The position numbers and the translations under genes are program-made. From contig NZ_JBGUKT010000018.1 of NCBI RefSeq assembly GCF_045114555.1, positions 1,907-33,906 on the forward strand: a stretch of 32,000 nucleotides of DNA. The letters are read 5' to 3'. The DNA comes from Methanobrevibacter sp. Its GTDB lineage: Archaea > Methanobacteriota > Methanobacteria > Methanobacteriales > Methanobacteriaceae. Positions 3,813 to 14,837 of the stretch are shown piece after piece. The notes under the pieces are model-generated. The model was given only the letters and a program-made list of their open reading frames with translations. It did not search any database and was not told where the DNA came from. Position 1 is the first letter of the stretch, and each line of letters begins with the position of its first letter.

Positions 3813-3851
3813 AAAAAAAGAAAAATGTGAAGACGTATTATTTACGTCTTC
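3813..3851 (-). terminator. Hairpin plus oligo-T terminator of adhesin paralog 1, with the stop codon inside the hairpin loop
   Basis: Minus strand reads GAAGACGT-AAATAAT-ACGTCTTC, an 8 bp perfect stem at 3829-3836/3844-3851. It is followed by ACATTTTTCTTTTTTT. The stem encodes the RRR tail and the loop holds AAA-TAA (Lys-stop). An identical element sits at 9327-9365. Confidence 0.6.
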
Positions 3852-6800
3852 TTCCTAAATTTGTAGATATTATCATTGCGAATGCCAATAAAACAAGCAA
3901 TACTGGATTACCTGTCTTAGCTAATGCAGGTTCAATCTCACTGCCTTGATTTTCAGCAACAACCACGTCATCAGGATTTACATCCTCACCATTGCCATTG
4001 TCAGGGACTGTTTCGTTATTGCCAGTTCCATTATCCGGTTTTGTATTGTTGTTGTCATCAGTACTGTTGTTGTTTTCAGCTTCTGTAACAGCAACTATTT
4101 CAGAGGATGCCTCGTCATTGGATGAATTGACATCATTTCCATTTAGGCTTACAGTAGCAGAGTTTGAGTAATTTCCTGCATTGTCAATCTTGACAGTGAC
4201 AGTTAACTTTACACTGGAACCATTGGACAATTCGCCAACAGACCATACGCCACTAGATGAATCGTAATCATCTGAAGATGCAGAGACAAATGTGAAATCA
4301 GCCAATTGACTGTCAGTAACCTTTACACCGCTTGAATCGTTAGGACCATTATTGGAAACGGTAATTGTGTATGTCACTTCATCGCCAACATTTATTTCTG
4401 TCTTGTCGACTGAGATGTCAATTGCCAAGTCAGAAACAGGATCAACGGTAAGTTTAGTTGAATAATCCTCGCTTGCCTTAAGCTCATTTGCTGAAACAGT
4501 GGATTTCAATTCCTTGGTTCCAACGAAGCTTGCCTTTGCAAGAATGGAAATGCTTGCTTCATCCCCATTAGCCAAGTCTCCAACAGACCATTCTCCAGAA
4601 GATGAGTCATATCCTTGACTTGAAGCCATCAACCTGCTCTTGGTAGAGAGATAATCAGAATCTGTAATGTTGTCAGATACATAAACCAATCCGTCAGGAA
4701 GAGTATTTTTCACAATGACTCCGCTTGCATCGTTAGGACCATTGTTCTTAACGGTAACAACCAATTCAACAATGTCATCGTAATTTACTTCGTTGCTGGA
4801 AAGGCTTATGGATACGCTTAAATCTGCTACAGGAATAGCCTTGACTTCAGGAGCACTAGCCTTATTGTCATCTGTATTGTTATCAAACTCTTTGGAAGTA
4901 ACATTAACCTCATTGGTCAATGCATCCAATGAATTAACAGTAGCATACAAGGTCAAAGAAACCTCACTGCCAGAGTCAATGCTTGCGATTTCCCATACAC
5001 CATTTCCTACATAAGTATCATCTGCTGAACTTACATTCATGCCACTAGGAACGGTATCTGTTACAACCACATTAGTAGCAGTATTCGGACCATTATTGGT
5101 TACAGTGATAGTGTAAGTGACAGCGTCTCCATAATAAGGAGTCATGATATCTACGGTCTTGACAATGCTCAAGTCAACTACAGGCTCAGCAACAACACCA
5201 GGTGCATCTGCACTATTGTCAGACTCTTCAGGATCATATTCATTAGCCCTGACAATGACACTATTTTCAATGGTGCCATTAGCAATTGCCCTGACAGTCA
5301 AATCTAAAGTAACCGGACTATTCGCAGCCAGCTTGTCAATATGCCATTTATTGGTTTGGTTATCGTATGTTCCAACGCTAGGTGAAGCGCTGACAAACTC
5401 AACAAGACTGCTTAAACTGTCATAAACATCAATATCAGTAGCATCGAAAGGACCTAAATTCACAAGATTGACTGTATATGTAATCAAGTCCCCGACTTTT
5501 ACAGTTTTTTTGTCTACGGTTTTGTTGATTCTCAAATCAGCTACAGACAATGCCTTTATGGTGCTGATATTGTCTGCATTGTTGGAATCGTTGGAGTCAT
5601 GCTCGCTGCAGCTTACGCTAACATAATTGTTAATGTCGCCTGCTGAAGTGACATTTGCGACTATTGCCAAAACAGCAGTATATCCACTTCTCAAATTAGT
5701 GATATTCCAAATTTTGCCGTTATAGGTTCCTATGCCGGTCTGGCTGGAATCCAAAGCAAGATGGGAATCCAATGCTTCCTCAACGACTACCTCAGTAGCA
5801 TCACAAGGCCCGTGATTGTGAACTTCTATGGTAAATTCTATTTGGTCTCCGACATGAACCTCGCCGGAGGCTACATTGACCTTTTTAGTGATTTGCAGAT
5901 CAACTAGAGGATGAACAGTGACAAGAACTTTAGTGCTGTTAGAGAAATAATTTTCGTTTCCGGCAAAGCTAACAGTGATATTGGCCTCACCAACGCCTAC
6001 AGCAACCATATTTCCATCTTCATCAACAGCAACAACGCTTTCATTGCTGGAAGCATAATCCAATACTCCCGCATTGGAAGGATCTAAAACCGCACCAATA
6101 TTGACTTGATTCCCTATATACAAGTCAAATGAATCGTTGACTTTGATGGATGTTGGAATCCTATTGTCACTTACAGTGACTGTGACTGTTGCGTTTGAAG
6201 GGGCATAATCGTCATTTCCTGCAAAGCTGATAAATACAGTAGTGGTGCCTACAGCCTTAGCCTCTAAATTGCCATAACTGTCAACTACTACAACGCTTTC
6301 ATTATTGCTTGTGTAGTCTAAAGAACCAGCCCCACTAGGATTCAAGACTGCATTAATCGCATCAAATTCACCAACCATATATGCCAATGCTTCCGGAGCA
6401 TCAATCCAGGTAGGAGTAATGACACGAACAATAACTTCCTTGCTAGCGGATTTATGGTTTTTATCAACAAGAGTGCTTAACTTTACAGTATAATTGCCTA
6501 CATCCAGACCAGTGACAATTACTTTTCCATCACTTACGGTAAAGTTATAATCAATGCCAACATACAAGATGGAACTGCCTTTTTTGATGCCGGTTATAGT
6601 TACAGTACCATTTTCTGCGGTATAGTTCAATTCAGCATCACTGCCTTTGACAATGGTTGTTCCATTTGCATCAAGACTGGAAGAAGCCTTATAGACATTG
6701 AATGAAGTCCTATTATGTGTATACATATAAGGTTCACCCTCTTCAAACTTAGTGAACTGAACATAAGCACCATATCCATCCTTTACATCAAGCAAAGCAG

Positions 6801-9036
6801 GAAGACGTATAATTTTCCCATTTAACTCATTTTCAGCTACAGTGACATTATAAGCCAATACATTTCCCTTTTTAACGTCATCATTGGAAAATGTGACATC
6901 ATAGCTTGAATTGGCAAGGTAAATGGTATAATTTCCTGAAACATTAGTGCTTAAATTAACAACAAGGTCTTCGCCATAAACAGCATCAGCAACATTGATC
7001 TTAAGAGTGTTGTTTAAGTAATTCAAAGATATAAAAGTACCTTTCTCCTTACCACTTCCTGTATAATAACTATCATCTGGATGGTATGCTTCATAGGAAT
7101 ACACTCCATATGGGAGAGTCTTATACTCATCAAAGAAAACCTGACCATTAATATTGGTTTGCTTTGTAATATTTAGCTTTGCTTTTCCAAGACCCGGAGT
7201 AAGGGAATTCCAAACTACTATAGTAATGTTTATACCTGCCTCTTTATTGCTGTTTATAGGAGAGTCACTGGTTACAAAAGAACCATCCCAATAGGTGACA
7301 TTTTGGAAATTAACACTACCGTAATTTTTAATTGCATTAATGTAATCTTCTTCACCTTTAAAAGTGAAGACTTTGGCATATTCTTGGGAATCCTCAGTTA
7401 AACTTACACTATTTGCTTTATTATACCTGAAAGTAGAATCTGCTATAAGGGAAATATTTCCTAGATTGTCTATTGCACCACCATAACTAGCGGAATTGTA
7501 CTCAAAGGTTGAATTTGCAATAAGTCCTAAATTTTCAACAATTGTGATTGCACCTCCATAATTAGCGGAATTGCGCTCAAATGTTGAATCTGCAATTATA
7601 GCCTTTTTAGATTCTTCACCCATCCAATAGATAGCACCGCCGCTAAAGGAAGCGGAGTTTTTCTTAAAGGTACAATTTGTAATGCTAGTGTGATCACCTG
7701 AATTTTCCAAGCAGATAGCACCACCAAAAGATAATAAAGAAGATGCTTTATTGTTTTCAAATAGAGAATTGGATATTTGGCAATTTTTTCCTACAAAAAG
7801 GATAGCACCACCAAGATTAGCCGTATTGCCTCTAAATTGACAGTTATCCACTTTAATATTATCTGCACCTGCCCAAGAATAAATAGCAGCCCCATATCTT
7901 CCCGCTTGATTATTAATAAATTGGGAATTAGATATTACATCATTACTACCCATTACGAGAATAGCACCTTCACTCTCAGCATAATTGTTTTTAAAAATAC
8001 AACCATCAATAGTACTCCGATGATCGATTTTAATAGCACTTCCTGAAGTGGCACGATTATTTTCAAACCTGCAGGAAAATACTACACTTCCATGATCAAG
8101 TTCGACCGCACCCCCCATTTTAGCAGTATTATTTATAAAGGTAGAGTTAGATACTTTAGATTCGCCAAAAATACTGATAGCGCCACCCGTATCATCTATA
8201 ACACTATTTGATATAAAAGTGCAGTTTCTAACATGGGCGAAATTCGTATTGAGAAAAACAGCACCCCCAGAACTAACTTGAAAACCTCCTACCTCATTTT
8301 CAATAAAGGTACAGTTCTCAATGAGGGCAGTACTCACTTCGTTCCTCCTATCTGTTATATATATAGCGCCACCTTTTGTACTAGCAAAATTTTTAGTGAA
8401 AATACAATTAAATATCTTAAGATTTGGAACAGCCTGACAATAAATGGCACCCCCCTCATAGGTTCCTGTGTACCATGTACCGTCATAATAATTATACGCA
8501 TTTGTAAACTTAATATTAGTTAAATTAACATCTTTAGCATATGAAATAAAAAGTATACGAGTAGTTTTCATTCCATTTAATGTTGCATATTGATCAGACC
8601 TATTGGCACCAATTATATTGATAGGTTTATTAATAGTAATCTGACTAAGCCCAATATATGTACGGCCATTTAGATAAATGGTATCCCCAGGGTTTGCCAT
8701 ATCAATTGCATCTTGAATATTTTGAAAGGAACCTCCATTAAGATTGATGTTCTTGCCTAATTTAGAGCTTTGCAAGACATTAGAAGAAGAATCCTTAACA
8801 TTTTCACTTGAATAATCCTCTTCTAGGGAAGCGTTTGTTGAATCTTGCTTAAGGGTTGCAACATCATCTACAGAATTCTCTTCATCAATTGACAGATCTT
8901 GAGTGGCTAAATCTGCATTAATGGAAGAATCGGGAATAGATAAATCGCTTGCATCTTCAGCTGAAACATTGGATAAACAGGTTAAAAGAGTAAAAATGAT
9001 TAAAATACCAAGTAACAGTTTCCTTTTGCTTTTCGT
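3838..9036 (-). CDS. Giant adhesin-like surface protein, paralog 1 (signal peptide, PMP beta-helix repeats, 2 Big_2-like Ig domains, 5 DUF11 repeats, LAKTG-TM-RRRK tail)
   Basis: One uninterrupted minus-strand frame runs from TAA 3838-3840 up to the in-frame TAA at 9061-9063. The ORF-track start (TTG 8775) is an internal Leu. The frame continues upstream through an acidic region and a signal peptide (KTKSKRKLLLGILIIFTLLTCLSNVSA/EDAS) homologous to paralog 2. I set the 5' end provisionally at ACG 9036, 5 nt after AAGGAGGTG, because no canonical start exists. There are about 13 GGAIY...N(C/S)(T/I)F.xN.A repeats and DUF11 units of the form VDLxIxKTV....TNNGP. Confidence 0.85.
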   Translation of the reverse strand, partial: TKSKRKLLLGILIIFTLLTCLSNVSAEDASDLSIPDSSINADLATQDLSIDEENSVDDVATLKQDSTNASLEEDYSSENVKDSSSNVLQSSKLGKNINLNGGSFQNIQDAIDMANPGDTIYLNGRTYIGLSQITINKPINIIGANRSDQYATLNGMKTTRILFISYAKDVNLTNIKFTNAYNYYDGTWYTGTYEGGAIYCQAVPNLKIFNCIFTKNFASTKGGAIYITDRRNEVSTALIENCTFIENEVGGFQVSSGGAVFLNTNFAHVRNCTFISNSVIDDTGGAISIFGESKVSNSTFINNTAKMGGAVELDHGSVVFSCRFENNRATSGSAIKIDHRSTIDGCIFKNNYAESEGAILVMGSNDVISNSQFINNQAGRYGAAIYSWAGADNIKVDNCQFRGNTANLGGAILFVGKNCQISNSLFENNKASSLLSFGGAICLENSGDHTSITNCTFKKNSASFSGGAIYWMGEESKKAIIADSTFERNSANYGGAITIVENLGLIANSTFEYNSASYGGAIDNLGNISLIADSTFRYNKANSVSLTEDSQEYAKVFTFKGEEDYINAIKNYGSVNFQNVTYWDGSFVTSDSPINSNKEAGINITIVVWNSLTPGLGKAKLNITKQTNINGQVFFDEYKTLPYGVYSYEAYHPDDSYYTGSGKEKGTFISLNYLNNTLKINVADAVYGEDLVVNLSTNVSGNYTIYLANSSYDVTFSNDDVKKGNVLAYNVTVAENELNGKIIRLPALLDVKDGYGAYVQFTKFEEGEPYMYTHNRTSFNVYKASSSLDANGTTIVKGSDAELNYTAENGTVTITGIKKGSSILYVGIDYNFTVSDGKVIVTGLDVGNYTVKLSTLVDKNHKSASKEVIVRVITPTWIDAPEALAYMVGEFDAINAVLNPSGAGSLDYTSNNESVVVVDSYGNLEAKAVGTTTVFISFAGNDDYAPSNATVTVTVSDNRIPTSIKVNDSFDLYIGNQVNIGAVLDPSNAGVLDYASSNESVVAVDEDGNMVAVGVGEANITVSFAGNENYFSNSTKVLVTVHPLVDLQITKKVNVASGEVHVGDQIEFTIEVHNHGPCDATEVVVEEALDSHLALDSSQTGIGTYNGKIWNITNLRSGYTAVLAIVANVTSAGDINNYVSVSCSEHDSNDSNNADNISTIKALSVADLRINKTVDKKTVKVGDLITYTVNLVNLGPFDATDIDVYDSLSSLVEFVSASPSVGTYDNQTNKWHIDKLAANSPVTLDLTVRAIANGTIENSVIVRANEYDPEESDNSADAPGVVAEPVVDLSIVKTVDIMTPYYGDAVTYTITVTNNGPNTATNVVVTDTVPSGMNVSSADDTYVGNGVWEIASIDSGSEVSLTLYATVNSLDALTNEVNVTSKEFDNNTDDNKASAPEVKAIPVADLSVSISLSSNEVNYDDIVELVVTVKNNGPNDASGVIVKNTLPDGLVYVSDNITDSDYLSTKSRLMASSQGYDSSSGEWSVGDLANGDEASISILAKASFVGTKELKSTVSANELKASEDYSTKLTVDPVSDLAIDISVDKTEINVGDEVTYTITVSNNGPNDSSGVKVTDSQLADFTFVSASSDDYDSSSGVWSVGELSNGSSVKLTVTVKIDNAGNYSNSATVSLNGNDVNSSNDEASSEIVAVTEAENNNSTDDNNNTKPDNGTGNNETVPDNGNGEDVNPDDVVVAENQGSEIEPALAKTGNPVLLVLLAFAMIISTNLGRRRK
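3841..3924 (-). other. C-terminal LPXTG-like sorting signal of paralog 1 (LAKTG, hydrophobic helix, RRRK)
   Basis: I translated this by hand. LAKTG occupies codons 3910-3924, followed by NPVLLVLLAFAMIISTNLG and RRRK-stop. Confidence 0.6.
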
Positions 9037-9041
9037 TTTTT

Positions 9042-9050
9042 CACCTCCTT
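9042..9050 (-). promoter_or_regulatory. Shine-Dalgarno AAGGAGGTG of adhesin paralog 1
   Basis: This is a perfect complement to the canonical 16S rRNA 3' tail. It sits immediately 5' of the signal-peptide codons and is identical in paralog 2 (14676-14684). Confidence 0.65.
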
Positions 9051-9230
9051 TTACAATCGATTAAATAAAAAATGAAAAAAATATTTCATTCAAAAGCACT
9101 TGAATAAAAAAATAAAAATAATATAAAGTTTTATATTAAACCATTAATTTAATAGAGCTTGAAAAATTTATCGCCTCATTTAAAAATGTTAAATAAATTG
9201 AATATTCACAAAATATTTCTTTCATTATTT

Positions 9231-9255
9231 TATATAAAACTATTATTATATAAAT
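9231..9255 (-). promoter_or_regulatory. Conserved dual TATA-box block upstream of adhesin paralog 1
   Basis: Minus strand reads ATTTATATAATAATAGTTTTATATA, which contains two archaeal TTTATATA-type boxes. The 25 nt are identical upstream of paralog 2 (14838-14862), while most of the surrounding intergenic DNA has diverged. Confidence 0.4.
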
Positions 9256-9326
9256 GTATATAGCTTAAAAAATCCTGAAAAAATATATCGAAATGTTCAA
9301 TTATGATATGGAAATTAGATTAATGT

Positions 9327-9365
9327 AAAAAAAGAAAAATGTGAAGACGTATTATTTACGTCTTC
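9327..9365 (-). terminator. Hairpin plus oligo-T terminator of adhesin paralog 2, with the stop codon in the loop
   Basis: Same GAAGACGT-AAATAAT-ACGTCTTC hairpin (9343-9350/9358-9365) followed by ACATTTTTCTTTTTTT on the minus strand. Confidence 0.6.
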
Positions 9366-12300
9366 TTCCTAAATTTGTAGATATTATCATAACAAATGCC
9401 AATAAAACAAGCAATATTGGATTACCTGTTTTTGCTAATGCAGGTTCAACAGCACCAGCTGGATTTACATCCTCACCACTGCCATTATCCGGAACAGTTT
9501 CATTGTTAATGTCAGGGCCATTGTATGGATCTGTCTCATTAAAAATGTCAGTTTCATTGTCTGGTTCTGTCTCGTTGTTGTTTTCAGCTTCTGTAACAGC
9601 AACTATTTCAGAGGTTGCCTCATCGTTGGATGAATTGACATCATTTCCATTAACGCTTACAGTAGCGGAGTTTGAGTAATTTCCTGCATTGTCAATCTTG
9701 ACAGTGACAGTTAACTTAACGCTGGACCCATTGGATAATTCGCCAACAGACCATACTCCACTATCTGCACTATAATCATCTGAAGATGCAGAAACAAATG
9801 TAAAATCAGCCAATTTACTGTCAGTAACCTTTACACCGCTTGCATCATTAGGACCATTGTTAGTTATGGTAATTGTATATGTTACTTCATCCCCGACATT
9901 TATTTCTGTCTTGTCGACTGAAATGTCAATTGCCAAGTCAGAAGCTGGATCAACGGTAAGTTCAGTTGAATAGTCCTCGCTTGCCTTAAGCTCATTTGCT
10001 GAAACAGTGGATTTCAATTCCTTGGTTCCAACGAAGTTAGCCTTTGCAAGAATGGAAATGCTAGTTTCATCACCATTAGCCAAGTCTCCAACAGACCATT
10101 CGCCAGAAGATGAGTCATATCCTTGACTTGAAGCCATCAATCTATTCTTGGTTGAGAGATAATCAGAATCTGAAACATTGTCAGAAACATAAACCAAACC
10201 TTCTGGAAGAGTGTTTTTAACGAGTACGCCGCTTGCATCGTTAGGACCATTGTTCTTAACGGTAACGACCAGTTCTACGATGTCGTCATAATTTACTTCG
10301 TTGCTGGAAAGGCTTATGGATGCACTTAAATCTGCTACAGGTGTAGGGTTGACGACTGGAGAGCTTGCACTGCTATAGTCAACGCTTTCAACATAAGCGT
10401 CCACGCTATCGACTTTAGCACTTGAACTCAAAGGATCAAGAGTATTTACAGTTCCACCAATCTCCAATTTCGCAGTATCTCCTTCGTTAAGGCCATCTAT
10501 AGTCCATTGGCTGGTTTGAGAGTCATATGTTCCAACGCTAGGAGTGATGGTCATGCCGTCCAAGCCTTCCGGTACAGTGACATTGATTACCAAATTAGTT
10601 GCATCAGACGGACCGTTGTTAGTCACGCTTGTAGCGAATCCGATTGAATCGCCGAAATCAGGACTTGTATTGTTTACTTCACTGCTCACAACCAAATTGA
10701 CAACAGCTTCAACAAGAACTGAATCTGAACTAGCTTTATCATTGGAGTCATTTAAGTCCTTTTCGTTAGCGCTGACAGATGCAGTGTTTGCTATAGTGCC
10801 ATTGCCTATAAGCTTGGTTACTAAAACCAACTCTTTAGATTCCTTGCTTGCTAAGTTTCCAACTGTCCAAACGCCATTGAAATCAATTCCATTGCCGTCA
10901 ACTGTAGCGGAAACAAGCTCAACAAGATTAGAAAGCTCATCACTTACATTTATGCCAGTTGCAGTGCAAGGACCATTATTGGTTACACTGATAGTGTACT
11001 TAATGGTATCTCCAACTTTAGCGCTTGTTGAATTAACCGCTTTGCTAATGCTTAAATCAACAACAGGAACAGCACTGACAGAATCAGATTTAACTGCATT
11101 GTCCTTTGTATTGCTATCAAACTCTTTGGAAGTAACATTAACCTCATTGGTCAATGAATCCAAGGAATTAACAGTAGCATACAAGGTCAAAGACACTTTA
11201 CTGCCAGAGTCAATGCTCGCTATTTCCCATACACCATTTCCTACATAAGTATCATCTGCTGAACTTACATTCATACCACTAGGAACGGTATCTGTTACAA
11301 CCACATTAGTAGCAGTATTCGGACCATTATTGGTTACAGTAATTGTGTAAGTGACAGTATCTGCATAATAAGGAGTCTGATTGTTTACAGTCTTGACAAT
11401 AGCCAAATCAACTAGAGGATGAACCTTGACCAATACTTCAGTACTGCTAGAGTAATAGTCATCGTTTCCAGCAAAGCTTACTGTGATATTGGCCTCACCA
11501 ACGCCCTTAGCGACCATATTTCCATCTTCATCAACTGTAACAACGCTTTCATTGCTGGAAGCATAATCCAATTCTCCAGCATTTGAAGGATCTAAAGAAG
11601 CGCCCATATTAACTTGATCATTTACATGCAAATCAAATGTATCATTCACTTCAATTGATGTCTGTACCCTGGAATTAACAACTGTGATTAGAACTGTTGC
11701 ACTTGAAGGAGCATAGATCTCATCTCCAGCAAATCTGACAGTGACATTGGCTTTGCCTATGCCTTTAGGAATCAAATTTCCATTGCCATCAACTGTGACT
11801 ATGCTTTCATTTCCGCTTTCAAAAGTTAAGCTTCCAGCTCCATGCGGATTTAAGGTTGCAACAATAGAACCTAAACCATCAGCAAATAAATTTACTGTTT
11901 TAGGAGCATCAATGCTGGTTGGAATGAGAACATTTACAGTTACTTCCTTGCTTGAAAGATTATGATTGGCATCAACGACAGTGGTTAGATTAACAGAATA
12001 CTTGCCTGAATCCAATCCGCTTATTATGACCTTATCATCACTTACAGCAAAGGTGTAATCAGTGCCGTTTTCCAATATGGAATTGCCTTTTTTAATGCTA
12101 GTTACGGTTACTGTACCATTTACTGCAGTGTAGTTCAATTCAGCATCACTGCCATTGAGGATAGTTGTTCCATTTGCATCAAGACTGGAAGCCGCCTTAT
12201 AGACATTGAATGAAGTCCTATTGCGTGAATACATATAAGGCGCACCATCTGCATCATTGGTAAACTGAACATAAGCACCATATCCATCCTTTGCATCAAG

Positions 12301-14670
12301 CAAAGCAGGAATTTGTATGACTTTACCATTCAATTCATTTTTAGATACGCTGACCTTATAAGCCAATACATTGCCTTTGCTGACATCATCATTGGTAAAT
12401 GTAACGTCATAGCTTGAATTTGCAATGTAAATAGTGTAATCTCCTGAAACATTTGTGCTTAAATTAACAACAAGATCTTCGCCATAAACCGCATCGGCAA
12501 CATCAATCTTAAGAGTATTCTTTTTGTAATCACTCTGTCTTAAATCAAGGGTATGCCATATATAATTTGATTGAGTGTAATAACTATCATCTGGATGAAT
12601 TACTACATATGTATATGTAGTCTTTCCAAATGGGGCAGACTTATACTCATCAAAGACAACTTGGCCATTGATATTGGTTGCTTTTGTAAAAGTTAGCGTT
12701 TGACCTGAAGCTGTTAGACCTATAGTAATGTTTATGCCTGCTTCCTTATTGCTTTTTATAGGAGAGTCGCTAGATACTAGTGAACCATCCCAATAAGTTA
12801 CATTCTGGAAATTAACTTTGGCAGAATCACCAGTTTTAATAGCATTCATATAATCTTCATTTCCTGTAAAAGTATAGATTTTAGCATCTGATTGGGAAGT
12901 CTCAGTAAGACTTGTAGTATTTGCCTTATTGTTTATGAATGTAGAATTTGCAATAAGGTTCAGATTATGAAGAATCGCTATTGCACCACCATAAACTGCA
13001 GAATTATGCTCAAAGGTAGAATTTGCAATTACAGCCTTTTTTGAAGTATCATTCATCCAGTATATAGCACCGCCGTAAATAGCATAGTTTGCATTAAAGC
13101 TACAGTTTACAATGCTAGAGGAATCAGGAGTATCTTCAATATAGATAGCTCCACCAAAACCTACATAATTATCATCTACTCTATTATTCTCAAATAGTGA
13201 ATCGGATATTTGGCAATTCTTACCGTAAAAAAAGATGGCCCCTCCCCTTTGTCCAACATGATTGTTAATAAATCGGGAGTTTTCCACTACAATACTGGCA
13301 CTATCAGACCATGTATAAATGGCAGCACCATAATTTTTTGCATAATTATTGTCAAATATGGAATTATTTATTACTAAATTTTTAGATTGTGCAGCAATGG
13401 CCCCTTCACTACCTGCATTATTCCTCAAGAAAGTACAATTATCTATAGTGAAAGAGCTGATAGAATATATAGCACTCCCAGTTGCAGCACTATTTTCTAC
13501 AAATTTAGAATTAATAATGCTACCTCCGTTTAGCCGTTTAAAAATGGCTCCACCTCTAGAGGTACCATCACTACCGATCACCCTATTATTCTCAAAATAA
13601 CAAGTTGAAATGACACCGTTTCCATCATCCTCCCATTCTATAGCGCCACCCGCTTTACCGGCAGAATTATTCTTAAAGGAACAATTGAAAATATAGAGAT
13701 CATCAGCAGTAACAATATTAATAGCAGCAGCATATGTAATTGCCACATTATTTAAGAAATTGCAATTTAATATATTATTATTATTACCTTTTATTAAATA
13801 TATGCAGCTACCAGTGGAACCTGTGGCACGACCATTATCACGACCATAATTGCTATCAAAAGTACAATTTAAAATAGTGGAATATGAAGACTGTAGATAT
13901 ATTGCACCTCCATTATATGCAGAATTGTTTGCAAATACACAATTTTCAATATGTTGATTACTAGTTTTAGAGGCATAATAAATTGCTCCTCCACGAAAAT
14001 CCAGTTCATAAGTAGAAATGGCAGAATTATATTTAAAGGCACAATTCTTTATAATACCATTGCTGCCACCCCAATAAATAGCACCTCCATGTGGATCCTC
14101 ATTCTCCTCAACTTCACCACTATAAAATTCGATGTTGATTAAGGTTACATCATTTGCAGTGATATAAAACATACGAGAAAGAACTTGTGCATATAAAAAT
14201 ACATGTTTATTTTCAAAACTGGAGTTTCCTATTATTGTAATGGGCTTATTAATAGTTATATGGGTTCCGGATCCAGTATACATATTATTAGCATTACCTC
14301 CATTTAAATAAATAGTGTCTCCAGAGTCTGCACGGTCGATTGCATCTTGAATATCTTTAAAGGTAGTTCCGCCTACACTGATATCCTTGCCCAATTTAGA
14401 GCTTTGCAAACTGGAAGAATTCTTAATCAGATCATCCTCTAAATAATCATCCGGGGAAGCATTAGTTGAATCTTGATTAGCAATTGCAACATCATCTATG
14501 CCAGTTATAGGTTCTTCATCAATTGATACATCCTGAGTGCTTAAATCTGCATCAATGGAAGAATCTTGAATTGCTAAACTGCCTGTATCTTCAGCTGAAA
14601 CATTAGATAAAAAGATTAGAATACTGAAAATAATTACAATACCGAGTAACTGTTTCCTTTTGCTATTCGT
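9352..14670 (-). CDS. Giant adhesin-like surface protein, paralog 2 (signal peptide, expanded PMP beta-helix region, 2 Big_2-like domains, 5 DUF11 repeats, LAKTG-TM-RRRK tail)
   Basis: The uninterrupted minus-strand frame has stop TAA at 9352-9354. The ORF track extends it to ATG 14724, but that extension (MKYFSHLLTQLIVKGGEK) reads through the conserved AAGGAGGTG. The 5' end is set at the homologous ACG 14670, with ATG 14724 as the alternative. Signal peptide: KTNSKRKQLLGIVIIFSILIFLSNVSA/EDTG. Confidence 0.85.
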   Translation of the reverse strand, partial: TNSKRKQLLGIVIIFSILIFLSNVSAEDTGSLAIQDSSIDADLSTQDVSIDEEPITGIDDVAIANQDSTNASPDDYLEDDLIKNSSSLQSSKLGKDISVGGTTFKDIQDAIDRADSGDTIYLNGGNANNMYTGSGTHITINKPITIIGNSSFENKHVFLYAQVLSRMFYITANDVTLINIEFYSGEVEENEDPHGGAIYWGGSNGIIKNCAFKYNSAISTYELDFRGGAIYYASKTSNQHIENCVFANNSAYNGGAIYLQSSYSTILNCTFDSNYGRDNGRATGSTGSCIYLIKGNNNNILNCNFLNNVAITYAAAINIVTADDLYIFNCSFKNNSAGKAGGAIEWEDDGNGVISTCYFENNRVIGSDGTSRGGAIFKRLNGGSIINSKFVENSAATGSAIYSISSFTIDNCTFLRNNAGSEGAIAAQSKNLVINNSIFDNNYAKNYGAAIYTWSDSASIVVENSRFINNHVGQRGGAIFFYGKNCQISDSLFENNRVDDNYVGFGGAIYIEDTPDSSSIVNCSFNANYAIYGGAIYWMNDTSKKAVIANSTFEHNSAVYGGAIAILHNLNLIANSTFINNKANTTSLTETSQSDAKIYTFTGNEDYMNAIKTGDSAKVNFQNVTYWDGSLVSSDSPIKSNKEAGINITIGLTASGQTLTFTKATNINGQVVFDEYKSAPFGKTTYTYVVIHPDDSYYTQSNYIWHTLDLRQSDYKKNTLKIDVADAVYGEDLVVNLSTNVSGDYTIYIANSSYDVTFTNDDVSKGNVLAYKVSVSKNELNGKVIQIPALLDAKDGYGAYVQFTNDADGAPYMYSRNRTSFNVYKAASSLDANGTTILNGSDAELNYTAVNGTVTVTSIKKGNSILENGTDYTFAVSDDKVIISGLDSGKYSVNLTTVVDANHNLSSKEVTVNVLIPTSIDAPKTVNLFADGLGSIVATLNPHGAGSLTFESGNESIVTVDGNGNLIPKGIGKANVTVRFAGDEIYAPSSATVLITVVNSRVQTSIEVNDTFDLHVNDQVNMGASLDPSNAGELDYASSNESVVTVDEDGNMVAKGVGEANITVSFAGNDDYYSSSTEVLVKVHPLVDLAIVKTVNNQTPYYADTVTYTITVTNNGPNTATNVVVTDTVPSGMNVSSADDTYVGNGVWEIASIDSGSKVSLTLYATVNSLDSLTNEVNVTSKEFDSNTKDNAVKSDSVSAVPVVDLSISKAVNSTSAKVGDTIKYTISVTNNGPCTATGINVSDELSNLVELVSATVDGNGIDFNGVWTVGNLASKESKELVLVTKLIGNGTIANTASVSANEKDLNDSNDKASSDSVLVEAVVNLVVSSEVNNTSPDFGDSIGFATSVTNNGPSDATNLVINVTVPEGLDGMTITPSVGTYDSQTSQWTIDGLNEGDTAKLEIGGTVNTLDPLSSSAKVDSVDAYVESVDYSSASSPVVNPTPVADLSASISLSSNEVNYDDIVELVVTVKNNGPNDASGVLVKNTLPEGLVYVSDNVSDSDYLSTKNRLMASSQGYDSSSGEWSVGDLANGDETSISILAKANFVGTKELKSTVSANELKASEDYSTELTVDPASDLAIDISVDKTEINVGDEVTYTITITNNGPNDASGVKVTDSKLADFTFVSASSDDYSADSGVWSVGELSNGSSVKLTVTVKIDNAGNYSNSATVSVNGNDVNSSNDEATSEIVAVTEAENNNETEPDNETDIFNETDPYNGPDINNETVPDNGSGEDVNPAGAVEPALAKTGNPILLVLLAFVMIISTNLGRRRK
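9355..9438 (-). other. C-terminal LPXTG-like sorting signal of paralog 2
   Basis: EPALAKTGNPILLVLLAFVMIISTNLGRRRK-stop. It has the same length and architecture as paralog 1. Confidence 0.6.
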
Positions 14671-14675
14671 TTTTT

Positions 14676-14684
14676 CACCTCCTT
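14676..14684 (-). promoter_or_regulatory. Shine-Dalgarno AAGGAGGTG of adhesin paralog 2
   Basis: Identical to 9042-9050 and followed by the same AAAAA-ACG-AA(T/A)-AGC-AAA-AGG-AAA sequence. Confidence 0.6.
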
Positions 14685-14837
14685 TTACAATCAATTGAGT
14701 TAAAAGATGAGAAAAATATTTCATTCAAAAGTTCCTGCATAAAAAAATAAGTACAGAAAAAAAATTTTATATATTGAATTATTGAAATTTATGAAAAATC
14801 AAATAATTAAAAATGATAAATGTCTTTTTCAATATTG

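Follow-up and report, generated by a model that had tools for sequence, protein, structure and literature searches.

Two adjoining giant open reading frames (ORFs) on the minus strand of a 32,000-nucleotide stretch of Methanobrevibacter sp. DNA (RefSeq assembly GCF_045114555.1, contig NZ_JBGUKT010000018.1, positions 1,907 to 33,906; hereafter, the window) encode adhesins, adhesin 1 and adhesin 2, whose C-termini belong to a family of tails with the core x-x-x-T-G-N-P-[I/L/V], about 17 hydrophobic residues and the basic end RR(F)KK. We show that T-G-N-P, and not the LAKTG pentapeptide of the window, is the conserved unit of this signal, the Ala of the window being incidental. With moderate confidence, we favor the interpretation that these tails represent a lineage-specific, divergent sortase-type signal derived from LPXTG, which would be cleaved between Thr and Gly and joined to an amine of pseudomurein.

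Translation of the minus strand, to which all adhesin coordinates given here refer, shows that both adhesins end in EPALAKTGNP(V/I)LLVLLAF(A/V)MIISTNLGRRRK followed by a stop codon. The ORF terminating at 3838 ends in ...EPALAKTGNPVLLVLLAFAMIISTNLGRRRK and that terminating at 9352 in ...EPALAKTGNPILLVLLAFVMIISTNLGRRRK. The tail of adhesin 1, LAKTGNPVLLVLLAFAMIISTNLGRRRK, occupies 3841-3924 and comprises LAKTG (3910-3924), GNP (3904-3912), a hydrophobic core (3853-3903) and RRRK (3841-3852); in the tail of adhesin 2, LAKTGNPILLVLLAFVMIISTNLGRRRK, at 9355-9438, the same elements lie at 9424-9438, 9418-9426, 9367-9417 and 9355-9366, respectively. The hydrophobic core is 17 residues long, with a mean Kyte-Doolittle value of 2.3 in adhesin 1 and 2.5 in adhesin 2. 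A low-complexity spacer precedes each tail, 52 amino acids (aa) with 75% N/D/E/T/P/G in adhesin 1 (3925-4080) and 50 aa with 76% in adhesin 2 (9439-9588). An earlier reading of the letters by a model without database searches (the sequence-only reading) had described a three-part tail of motif, hydrophobic segment and cationic end behind such a spacer on both adhesins, and its coordinates proved exact on re-translation. LAKTG also occurs in the orthologues of the rumen metagenome-assembled genome (MAG) RUG344 and of GCA_964295765.1. Because the two adhesins are tandem paralogues, 78-92% identical over the roughly 300 aligned columns that precede spacer and tail, their tails do not count as independent observations, and significance was therefore taken from the family level.

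Homologues of the segment formed by the last DUF11 domain and the tail, together with Methanobrevibacter loci, already display a range of motifs (LPKAGNP, LPETGNP, MHETGNP, LHETGNP, LEKTGNP, MRPTGNP and DYPTGNP). A 32-column tail-only profile was then searched with full HMMER against 1.84 billion proteins (cluster representatives, E<=0.001), which was required as a word-index census with the tail profile recovered 12 short fragments only. The full search returned 137 cluster representatives, from proteins of up to 5996 aa, and almost all matches end on the last residue. Per-position statistics drawn from 136 tails show Asn at P2' and Pro at P3' in every tail (136 each, 100%) and Ile, Leu or Val at P4' in all 136, with Gly at P1' in 131 (96%; Ala in 5) and Thr at P1 in 126 (93%; Ala in 8). 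Position P3 is occupied by Tyr (40), His (37), Pro (21), Asn (12), Lys (9), Glu (6) and Ala (2), and P4 by Leu (26), Met (25), Lys (18) and Asp (17). The motif Gly lies 23-24 residues from the C-terminus in 114 of the 136 tails; RRFKK and LRRRK are the typical endings, and the sequence of the helix is free to vary, with no helix-internal residue kept family-wide. We define the family by [T/A]-G-N-P-[ILV], a hydrophobic stretch, an R-R/K end and a Gly 21-24 residues from the C-terminus, all of which are present in the window tails. The representative of the window type, P0136, scored 43.1 bits (E 2.2e-6), partly by construction with the window tails inside the profile, and more than 115 other clusters are independent of it.

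These frequencies divide the motif proposed by the sequence-only reading, which had described LAKTG, with Ala replacing Pro, as LPXTG-like and had made its conservation among orthologous C-termini the criterion: the T-G part stands (126 and 131 of the 136 tails) and the L-A-K part falls, with Ala at P3 in two. A class E explanation of the motif, to which both the identity of LAKTG with LAXTG and the best match of the archaeal sortase to Sortase_E had pointed, was rejected on the same count. The combination of a conserved T-G-N-P with a variable helix fits a motif that would be read outside a disposable helix rather than helix-internal recognition by an intramembrane protease, an argument to be compared with Haft's. 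One variant tail departs from the pattern: a 2140-aa Methanobrevibacter adhesin (locus L074, 7994-14416) ends in ...EMKETGIPIALLIVFALLSFALCSSNISKKR, where Gly-Ile-Pro replaces the otherwise invariant Gly-Asn-Pro.

Curated signal models place the family on the edge of the LPXTG class. On the bare window tails, PF00746 (Gram_pos_anchor) reached 15.0 bits for adhesin 1 and 14.4 for adhesin 2 against a cut-off of 20, and TIGR01167 gave no match; neither model matched the full adhesins or their last 100 aa. Among the family tails, 20 of the 136 carry [LIVM]-P-x-[T/A/S]-G. TIGR01167 (cut-off 15.9) accepts an LPKTG-NP tail from M. olleyae at 17.9 and two LPATG-NP tails at 16.6 and 16.5, and one LPATG-NP tail reaches 22.9 with PF00746 (cut-off 20), while YPTG, MHxTG, LPKAG and LAKYETG tails fail the LPXTG models. 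As some LPxTG-NP tails pass and tails with other motifs fail, the family straddles the LPXTG models, which we consider the best evidence that the signal may be a diverged LPXTG type rather than an unrelated one. The sortase-substrate architecture claimed by the sequence-only reading is accordingly retained as a tripartite layout in a family that grades into true LPXTG, and the window tails themselves remain under the PF00746 and TIGR01167 cut-offs. Archaeosortase- and exosortase-type CTERM models in NCBIfam did not match the window tails at E<=10, in agreement with the earlier statement that the motif is neither PGF-CTERM nor another archaeosortase-type signal. On other family tails, all non-LPXTG CTERM scores were sub-threshold (PEP_CTERM 13.4 vs 16; JDVT-CTERM 18.0, 17.4 and 14.2 vs 27), and we found no curated model for the family.

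The tail shows many-to-one behavior, with one tail type joined to unrelated passenger architectures. We found it behind Big_3_5 arrays, DUF11 arrays, mixed arrays, Chlam_PMP/beta-helix and Cna_B domains, in proteins ranging from 200 to 6000 aa. Across about 357 kb of Methanobrevibacter-type DNA, it terminates 16 of the 28 ORFs that are at least 600 aa long and complete at the 3' end. The members whose source is named all come from Methanobrevibacter, namely M. olleyae AMK14572.1 (adhesin-like), M. sp. DSM 116169 WP_409199377.1 and, among other rumen MAGs, RUG344, RUG823 and RGIG8874.

Our interpretation builds directly on the architecture of the signal, its family-wide conservation, its presence on unrelated passengers and its continuity with tails scoring above the curated LPXTG cut-offs; a sortase as the processing enzyme, cleavage between Thr and Gly, and pseudomurein as the acceptor are the putative steps that follow. 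The adhesin would leave the cell via Sec, using its N-terminal signal peptide, and would be held in the membrane by the C-terminal helix and the basic stop-transfer end. A membrane-tethered sortase of the pseudomurein archaea (PF04203, CDD best match Sortase_E) would then cut between Thr and Gly and move the Thr carboxyl onto an amine in either a precursor or a stem peptide of pseudomurein, leaving the long DUF11/CLIPPER stalk and the beta-helix head exposed beyond the wall. The sortase already known from these archaea in the literature probably handles the TGNP tail. M. ruminantium M1 has the sortase mru1832 and one LPxTG-like adhesin, mru2147, and M. smithii one sortase and two LPxTG proteins, msm0173 and msm0411 (PMC2812497). 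M. thermautotrophicus has two sortases and no detected LPxTG protein, and M. stadtmanae (Methanosphaera) has neither (PMC2812497; PMC3087415). A 2025 pangenomic study found the sortase orthogroup OG0001178 (PF04203, TIGR01076, CDD cd05830 Sortase_E as best match) in all five reference pseudomurein archaea and in no other archaea; it adjoins a DUF515 (RcpC-CpaB-like) gene and lies near 'Sortase C' in the tree, and the pair was read as related to pili or surface proteins (PMC11915815). The statement in the sequence-only reading that a few Methanobacteriales genomes have sortase homologues is thereby documented for the genus and beyond.

Several observations weigh against this interpretation. By strict LPXTG membership, the window tails are outside the class, with scores below the curated cut-offs and L-A-K-T-G in place of the L-P-x-T-G pentapeptide. 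Positions P4 and P3 (L and P/A), which bacterial sortases read, are not conserved, eight tails have Ala at P1, and the invariant Asn-Pro lies on the primed side, directly abutting the helix, resembling the PEP-CTERM and PGF-CTERM signals cut by intramembrane enzymes. No sortase was found within +/-10 kb of family members at 10 loci or in the roughly 357 kb of related archaeal DNA, and its presence in this strain we infer from the literature on relatives. Only a few of the 137 clusters have a known taxonomy, most of the others being metagenome proteins. Our literature search found no report of experimental sortase activity or of a protein-pseudomurein linkage in any archaeon, as the sequence-only reading had also supposed for covalent sortase-type anchoring. 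That reading had likewise seen no sortase in the window; none was detected by Pfam among ORFs of at least 100 aa, nor by phmmer or a 120-sequence sortase hidden Markov model (HMM) over all ORFs of at least 60 aa.

When class A, C, D and E sortases and motif variants were used as queries, the best 120 of 2475 matches all look bacterial, and no archaeal sortase entry was evident in the PDB. At three bacterial loci (L040 7181-12292, L079 3503-12643 and L080 3-2630; Limnocylindrales, Dormibacterota and Anaerolineales), a giant-DUF11 stop-to-stop ORF carries at its C-terminal end a sortase domain (E 1e-12 to 1e-22), possibly as an adhesin-sortase fusion or as unresolved adjacent genes.

Three other explanations have to be weighed against a sortase-type wall signal. 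The tail might be a plain C-terminal membrane anchor, where the helix and basic end hold a type I protein and T-G-N-P serves as a structural cap or hinge of the helix, with no cleavage. An Asn-Pro pair at the N-terminus of a helix is a plausible capping element, 14 adhesin-like proteins of M. ruminantium have been classed as anchored by a C-terminal transmembrane (TM) domain (Leahy et al., PMC2812497), and the window tails miss the LPXTG thresholds. We nevertheless regard a plain anchor as unlikely, as it leaves unexplained the near-invariant Thr-Gly, two residues outside a freely varying helix in 136 divergent tails, the fixed distance of 23-24 residues from Gly to the C-terminus and the continuity with tails that pass the LPXTG models; moreover, a stalk fixed in the membrane would need to traverse the pseudomurein sacculus.

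Thr-Gly is also the exact scissile pair of sortases, which counts against a separate 'TGNP-CTERM' system, where a non-sortase enzyme (a CPBP/Rce1, rhomboid or exosortase-like intramembrane protease) would process the tail, possibly with lipid attachment as in PGF-CTERM/ArtA. Such a system would agree with invariant residues that abut the TM helix, as they do in PEP-CTERM, PGF-CTERM and CGP-CTERM, with the unconserved P4 and P3, and with a signal that no curated model covers. New enzyme-signal pairs continue to emerge from Haft's work, and the M. olleyae member has an Rce1-like (PF02517) gene at a distance of 8 kb, a weak indication that may be coincidence. Yet the same family contains a canonical LPxTG subset, no residue inside the helix is conserved family-wide, the invariant Cys of CPBP-linked signals is absent, and the conserved sortase of the lineage has few recognized substrates (0-2 LPxTG proteins per genome by an older HMM; PMC2812497), such that we find a separate system quite improbable. 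A sortase might instead polymerize or cross-link the adhesins into fibers, as in class C-like pilus assembly, rather than fix them to pseudomurein. The position of the archaeal sortase near 'Sortase C', beside the DUF515/RcpC-CpaB-like gene and with its pili/surface reading (PMC11915815), speaks for fibers, as do substrates built from isopeptide-domain (CLIPPER, Cna_B) stalks typical of Gram-positive pilins. Neither a pilin motif (YPKN-type lysine) nor a sortase-pilin operon was seen, and the substrates, giant multi-domain adhesins spread over the genome, are unlike small pilins that cluster with their enzyme; we rate fiber assembly as highly unlikely.

Extending the sortase-type interpretation to the lineage, we tentatively suggest that in Methanobrevibacter, and perhaps in other Methanobacteriales, a single class-E-like sortase might read a T-G-N-P signal that bacterial LPXTG models miss and covalently fix giant adhesins to pseudomurein, dozens of them in each genome. 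If true, this would be the first sortase-mediated wall anchoring in Archaea, with specificity moved from P4/P3 to the primed side (Asn-Pro); if another enzyme processes the tail, it would be a new sorting system. The surface of rumen and gut methanogens is dominated by adhesin-like proteins; for methane mitigation these are candidate vaccine targets, and sortase is a proposed drug target in the same methanogens (PMC2812497). The TGNP core would explain why bacterial LPXTG models count just 0-2 substrates per methanogen genome, and its consensus would permit surface proteins of this class to be annotated properly. It also supplies a defined substrate set and specific peptides for an archaeal sortase, bearing on the question of covalent attachment of protein to pseudomurein.

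Judged by domain architecture, adhesin 1 and adhesin 2 are fibrillar adhesins. Adhesin 1 (3838-9060) is a stop-to-stop ORF of 1740 codons comprising a signal peptide, a Chlam_PMP/beta-helix passenger, Big_2, five DUF11/CLIPPER domains, the spacer and the tail, with its ATG out of frame. Adhesin 2 (9352-14724) has the same architecture in 1790 aa, with an ATG start and an intact reading frame. Pfam finds five PF01345 (DUF11/CLIPPER) stretches per adhesin (E 7.5e-127 and 1.4e-115) besides the Chlam_PMP/beta-helix repeats and Big_2 in both, and tandem PF01345 domains on a secreted surface protein, which characterize CLIPPER/DUF11 fibrillar adhesins, are found in each. Direct reading of the sequence assigns to adhesin 2 a typical signal peptide of the Sec type, TNSKRKQLLGIVIIFSILIFLSNVSA|ED (14593-14670). 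The homologous signal peptide of adhesin 1, TKSKRKLLLGILIIFTLLTCLSNVSA|ED (8959-9036), lies within the main ORF and out of reach of the ATG at 9087-9089.

In the start region of adhesin 1 (9030-9089), a T-run differs by 1 bp from that of adhesin 2, which puts this ATG 1 nt out of frame with the signal peptide and the main ORF; the ATG frame terminates after 12 codons. The first in-frame canonical start is a TTG at 8775, and a start there would leave out the signal peptide. In the independent assembly GCA_964295765.1, the start region is base-for-base equal (L091 ~9610-9680), with the gene called from an internal Met; the offset is therefore a stable feature of the lineage and no one-off assembly error, and a pseudogene, a slippage tract or non-canonical initiation are the options. 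In both genes, we noticed an in-frame Shine-Dalgarno-like GGAGGTGA (~9036-9050 and ~14670-14690), followed a few bases 3' by ACG-AA(A/T)-AGC-AAA-AGG-AAA, which encodes the Lys-rich beginning of the signal peptide. Both adhesins present a ribosome-binding site at the expected start, yet ATG, GTG and TTG are all absent there, and the real start of adhesin 2 may be other than the annotated upstream ATG.

At the 3' ends, identical terminator-like hairpins, GAAGACGTAAATAATACGTCTTC with a 9-bp stem followed by a T-run, lie at 3829-3851 in adhesin 1 and 9343-9365 in adhesin 2. As they overlap RRRK and the stop codons of both genes, the codons of the basic tail double as a terminator-like structure. 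The interval between Mtd and HisB that holds the pair (window 3838-14724) contains a single 1503-aa adhesin with a LAKTGNP tail in GCA_964295765.1 (L091 10001-14512); the tandem pair is therefore a recent, strain-specific duplication. Identity between the paralogues falls to 24-57% in the N-terminal passenger, a mosaic which suggests either duplication with diversification of the passenger or gene conversion at the 3' end.

Other genes of the window code for Mtd, HisB, a MurJ-like flippase, O-antigen-polymerase-like, CobB/CobQ-like and CimA/LeuA proteins, among others. Four RefSeq 'Methanobrevibacter sp.' proteins (WP_405323724, WP_405323728, WP_405323730 and WP_405323736) are identical to window proteins; together with Mtd, they bear out the earlier assignment of the host to a pseudomurein-walled methanogen. 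An exact-sequence look-up of adhesin 2 returned no record, and RUG344 is the nearest genome among species representatives, with both tail variants present. A sigma-70 promoter scan of the window was uninformative, the host being an archaeon.

Other giant adhesin-like ORFs (L007 2005-8146, L042 305-11131 and others) are without a TGNP tail, and in several of them the C-terminus is a Lys-rich beta-strand segment (...SLKIKK, ...KVKIKVV). Such ends are probably those of the wall-binding class named 'M1-C' by Leahy et al., and the adhesin repertoire would seem to be split between two alternative anchoring modes. Tandem arrays of adhesin genes of extreme size occur at L094 1-37991 (>5149, 5996 and >8339 aa), where at least two neighbors have YxTGNP tails, and at L095 1-13261 (>6346 and 1086 aa).

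The closest precedent for these tails is the work of Leahy et al. (2010), who described LPxTG-like proteins (mru2147; msm0173 and msm0411) and the sortase mru1832 in Methanobrevibacter (PMC2812497). Genus, protein class and proposed mechanism are the same as here, and the idea of sortase anchoring as such is not new. The bacterial LPxTG HMM used there recognized 1-2 proteins per genome, in contrast to the far larger TGNP-core family of our census, which probably includes proteins that Leahy et al. classed as anchored by a 'C-terminal TM domain'. In the literature searched, no earlier account of a TGNP-type signal in methanogens came up; TGNP as the real signature, most of its members being missed by standard models, and the large size of the family appear to be new.

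Compared with the LPXTG/sortase A system of Gram-positive bacteria (PF00746, TIGR01167), the TGNP system shares an extreme C-terminal Thr-Gly motif with a hydrophobic helix and basic end, a low-complexity wall-spanning spacer before the signal, putatively Sec-exported adhesins and isopeptide-domain stalks, and some family members bear a true LPxTG and pass the curated models. It differs in its archaeal host with pseudomurein instead of murein, in the unconserved Leu and Pro, in the invariant Asn-Pro between Gly and helix, and in the sub-threshold scores of the window tails; its enzyme, cleavage and acceptor are putative. The resemblance to the class E sortase/LAXTG system of Actinobacteria (S. 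coelicolor SrtE1 and chaplins; PMC5148588) lies in the window LAKTG, which is literally LAXTG, and in Sortase_E as the annotated best CDD match of the archaeal OG0001178 (PMC11915815). In the family, however, Tyr, His, Pro and Asn dominate at P3 and Ala is not conserved (2/136), and the LAXTG match looks incidental.

PGF-CTERM/ArtA, PEF-CTERM, VPXXXP-CTERM and PEP-CTERM, archaeal or Gram-negative, likewise have tripartite C-terminal signals, a motif abutting the helix and a many-to-one distribution. Their signature residues differ from T-G-N-P, their models match none of the window tails, and these systems attach lipid via multi-pass intramembrane enzymes. Finally, DUF11 has been renamed CLIPPER as an intramolecular-isopeptide stalk domain (PMC12617251). 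Consistent with the CLIPPER fibrillar adhesins surveyed there, five PF01345 domains form the stalk of each window adhesin, and the co-occurrence with Chlam_PMP seen in archaeal members is present. In contrast to the surveyed archaeal members, which mostly have archaeosortase-type signals (PF18204 and relatives; PMC12617251), the window adhesins bear the TGNP tail.

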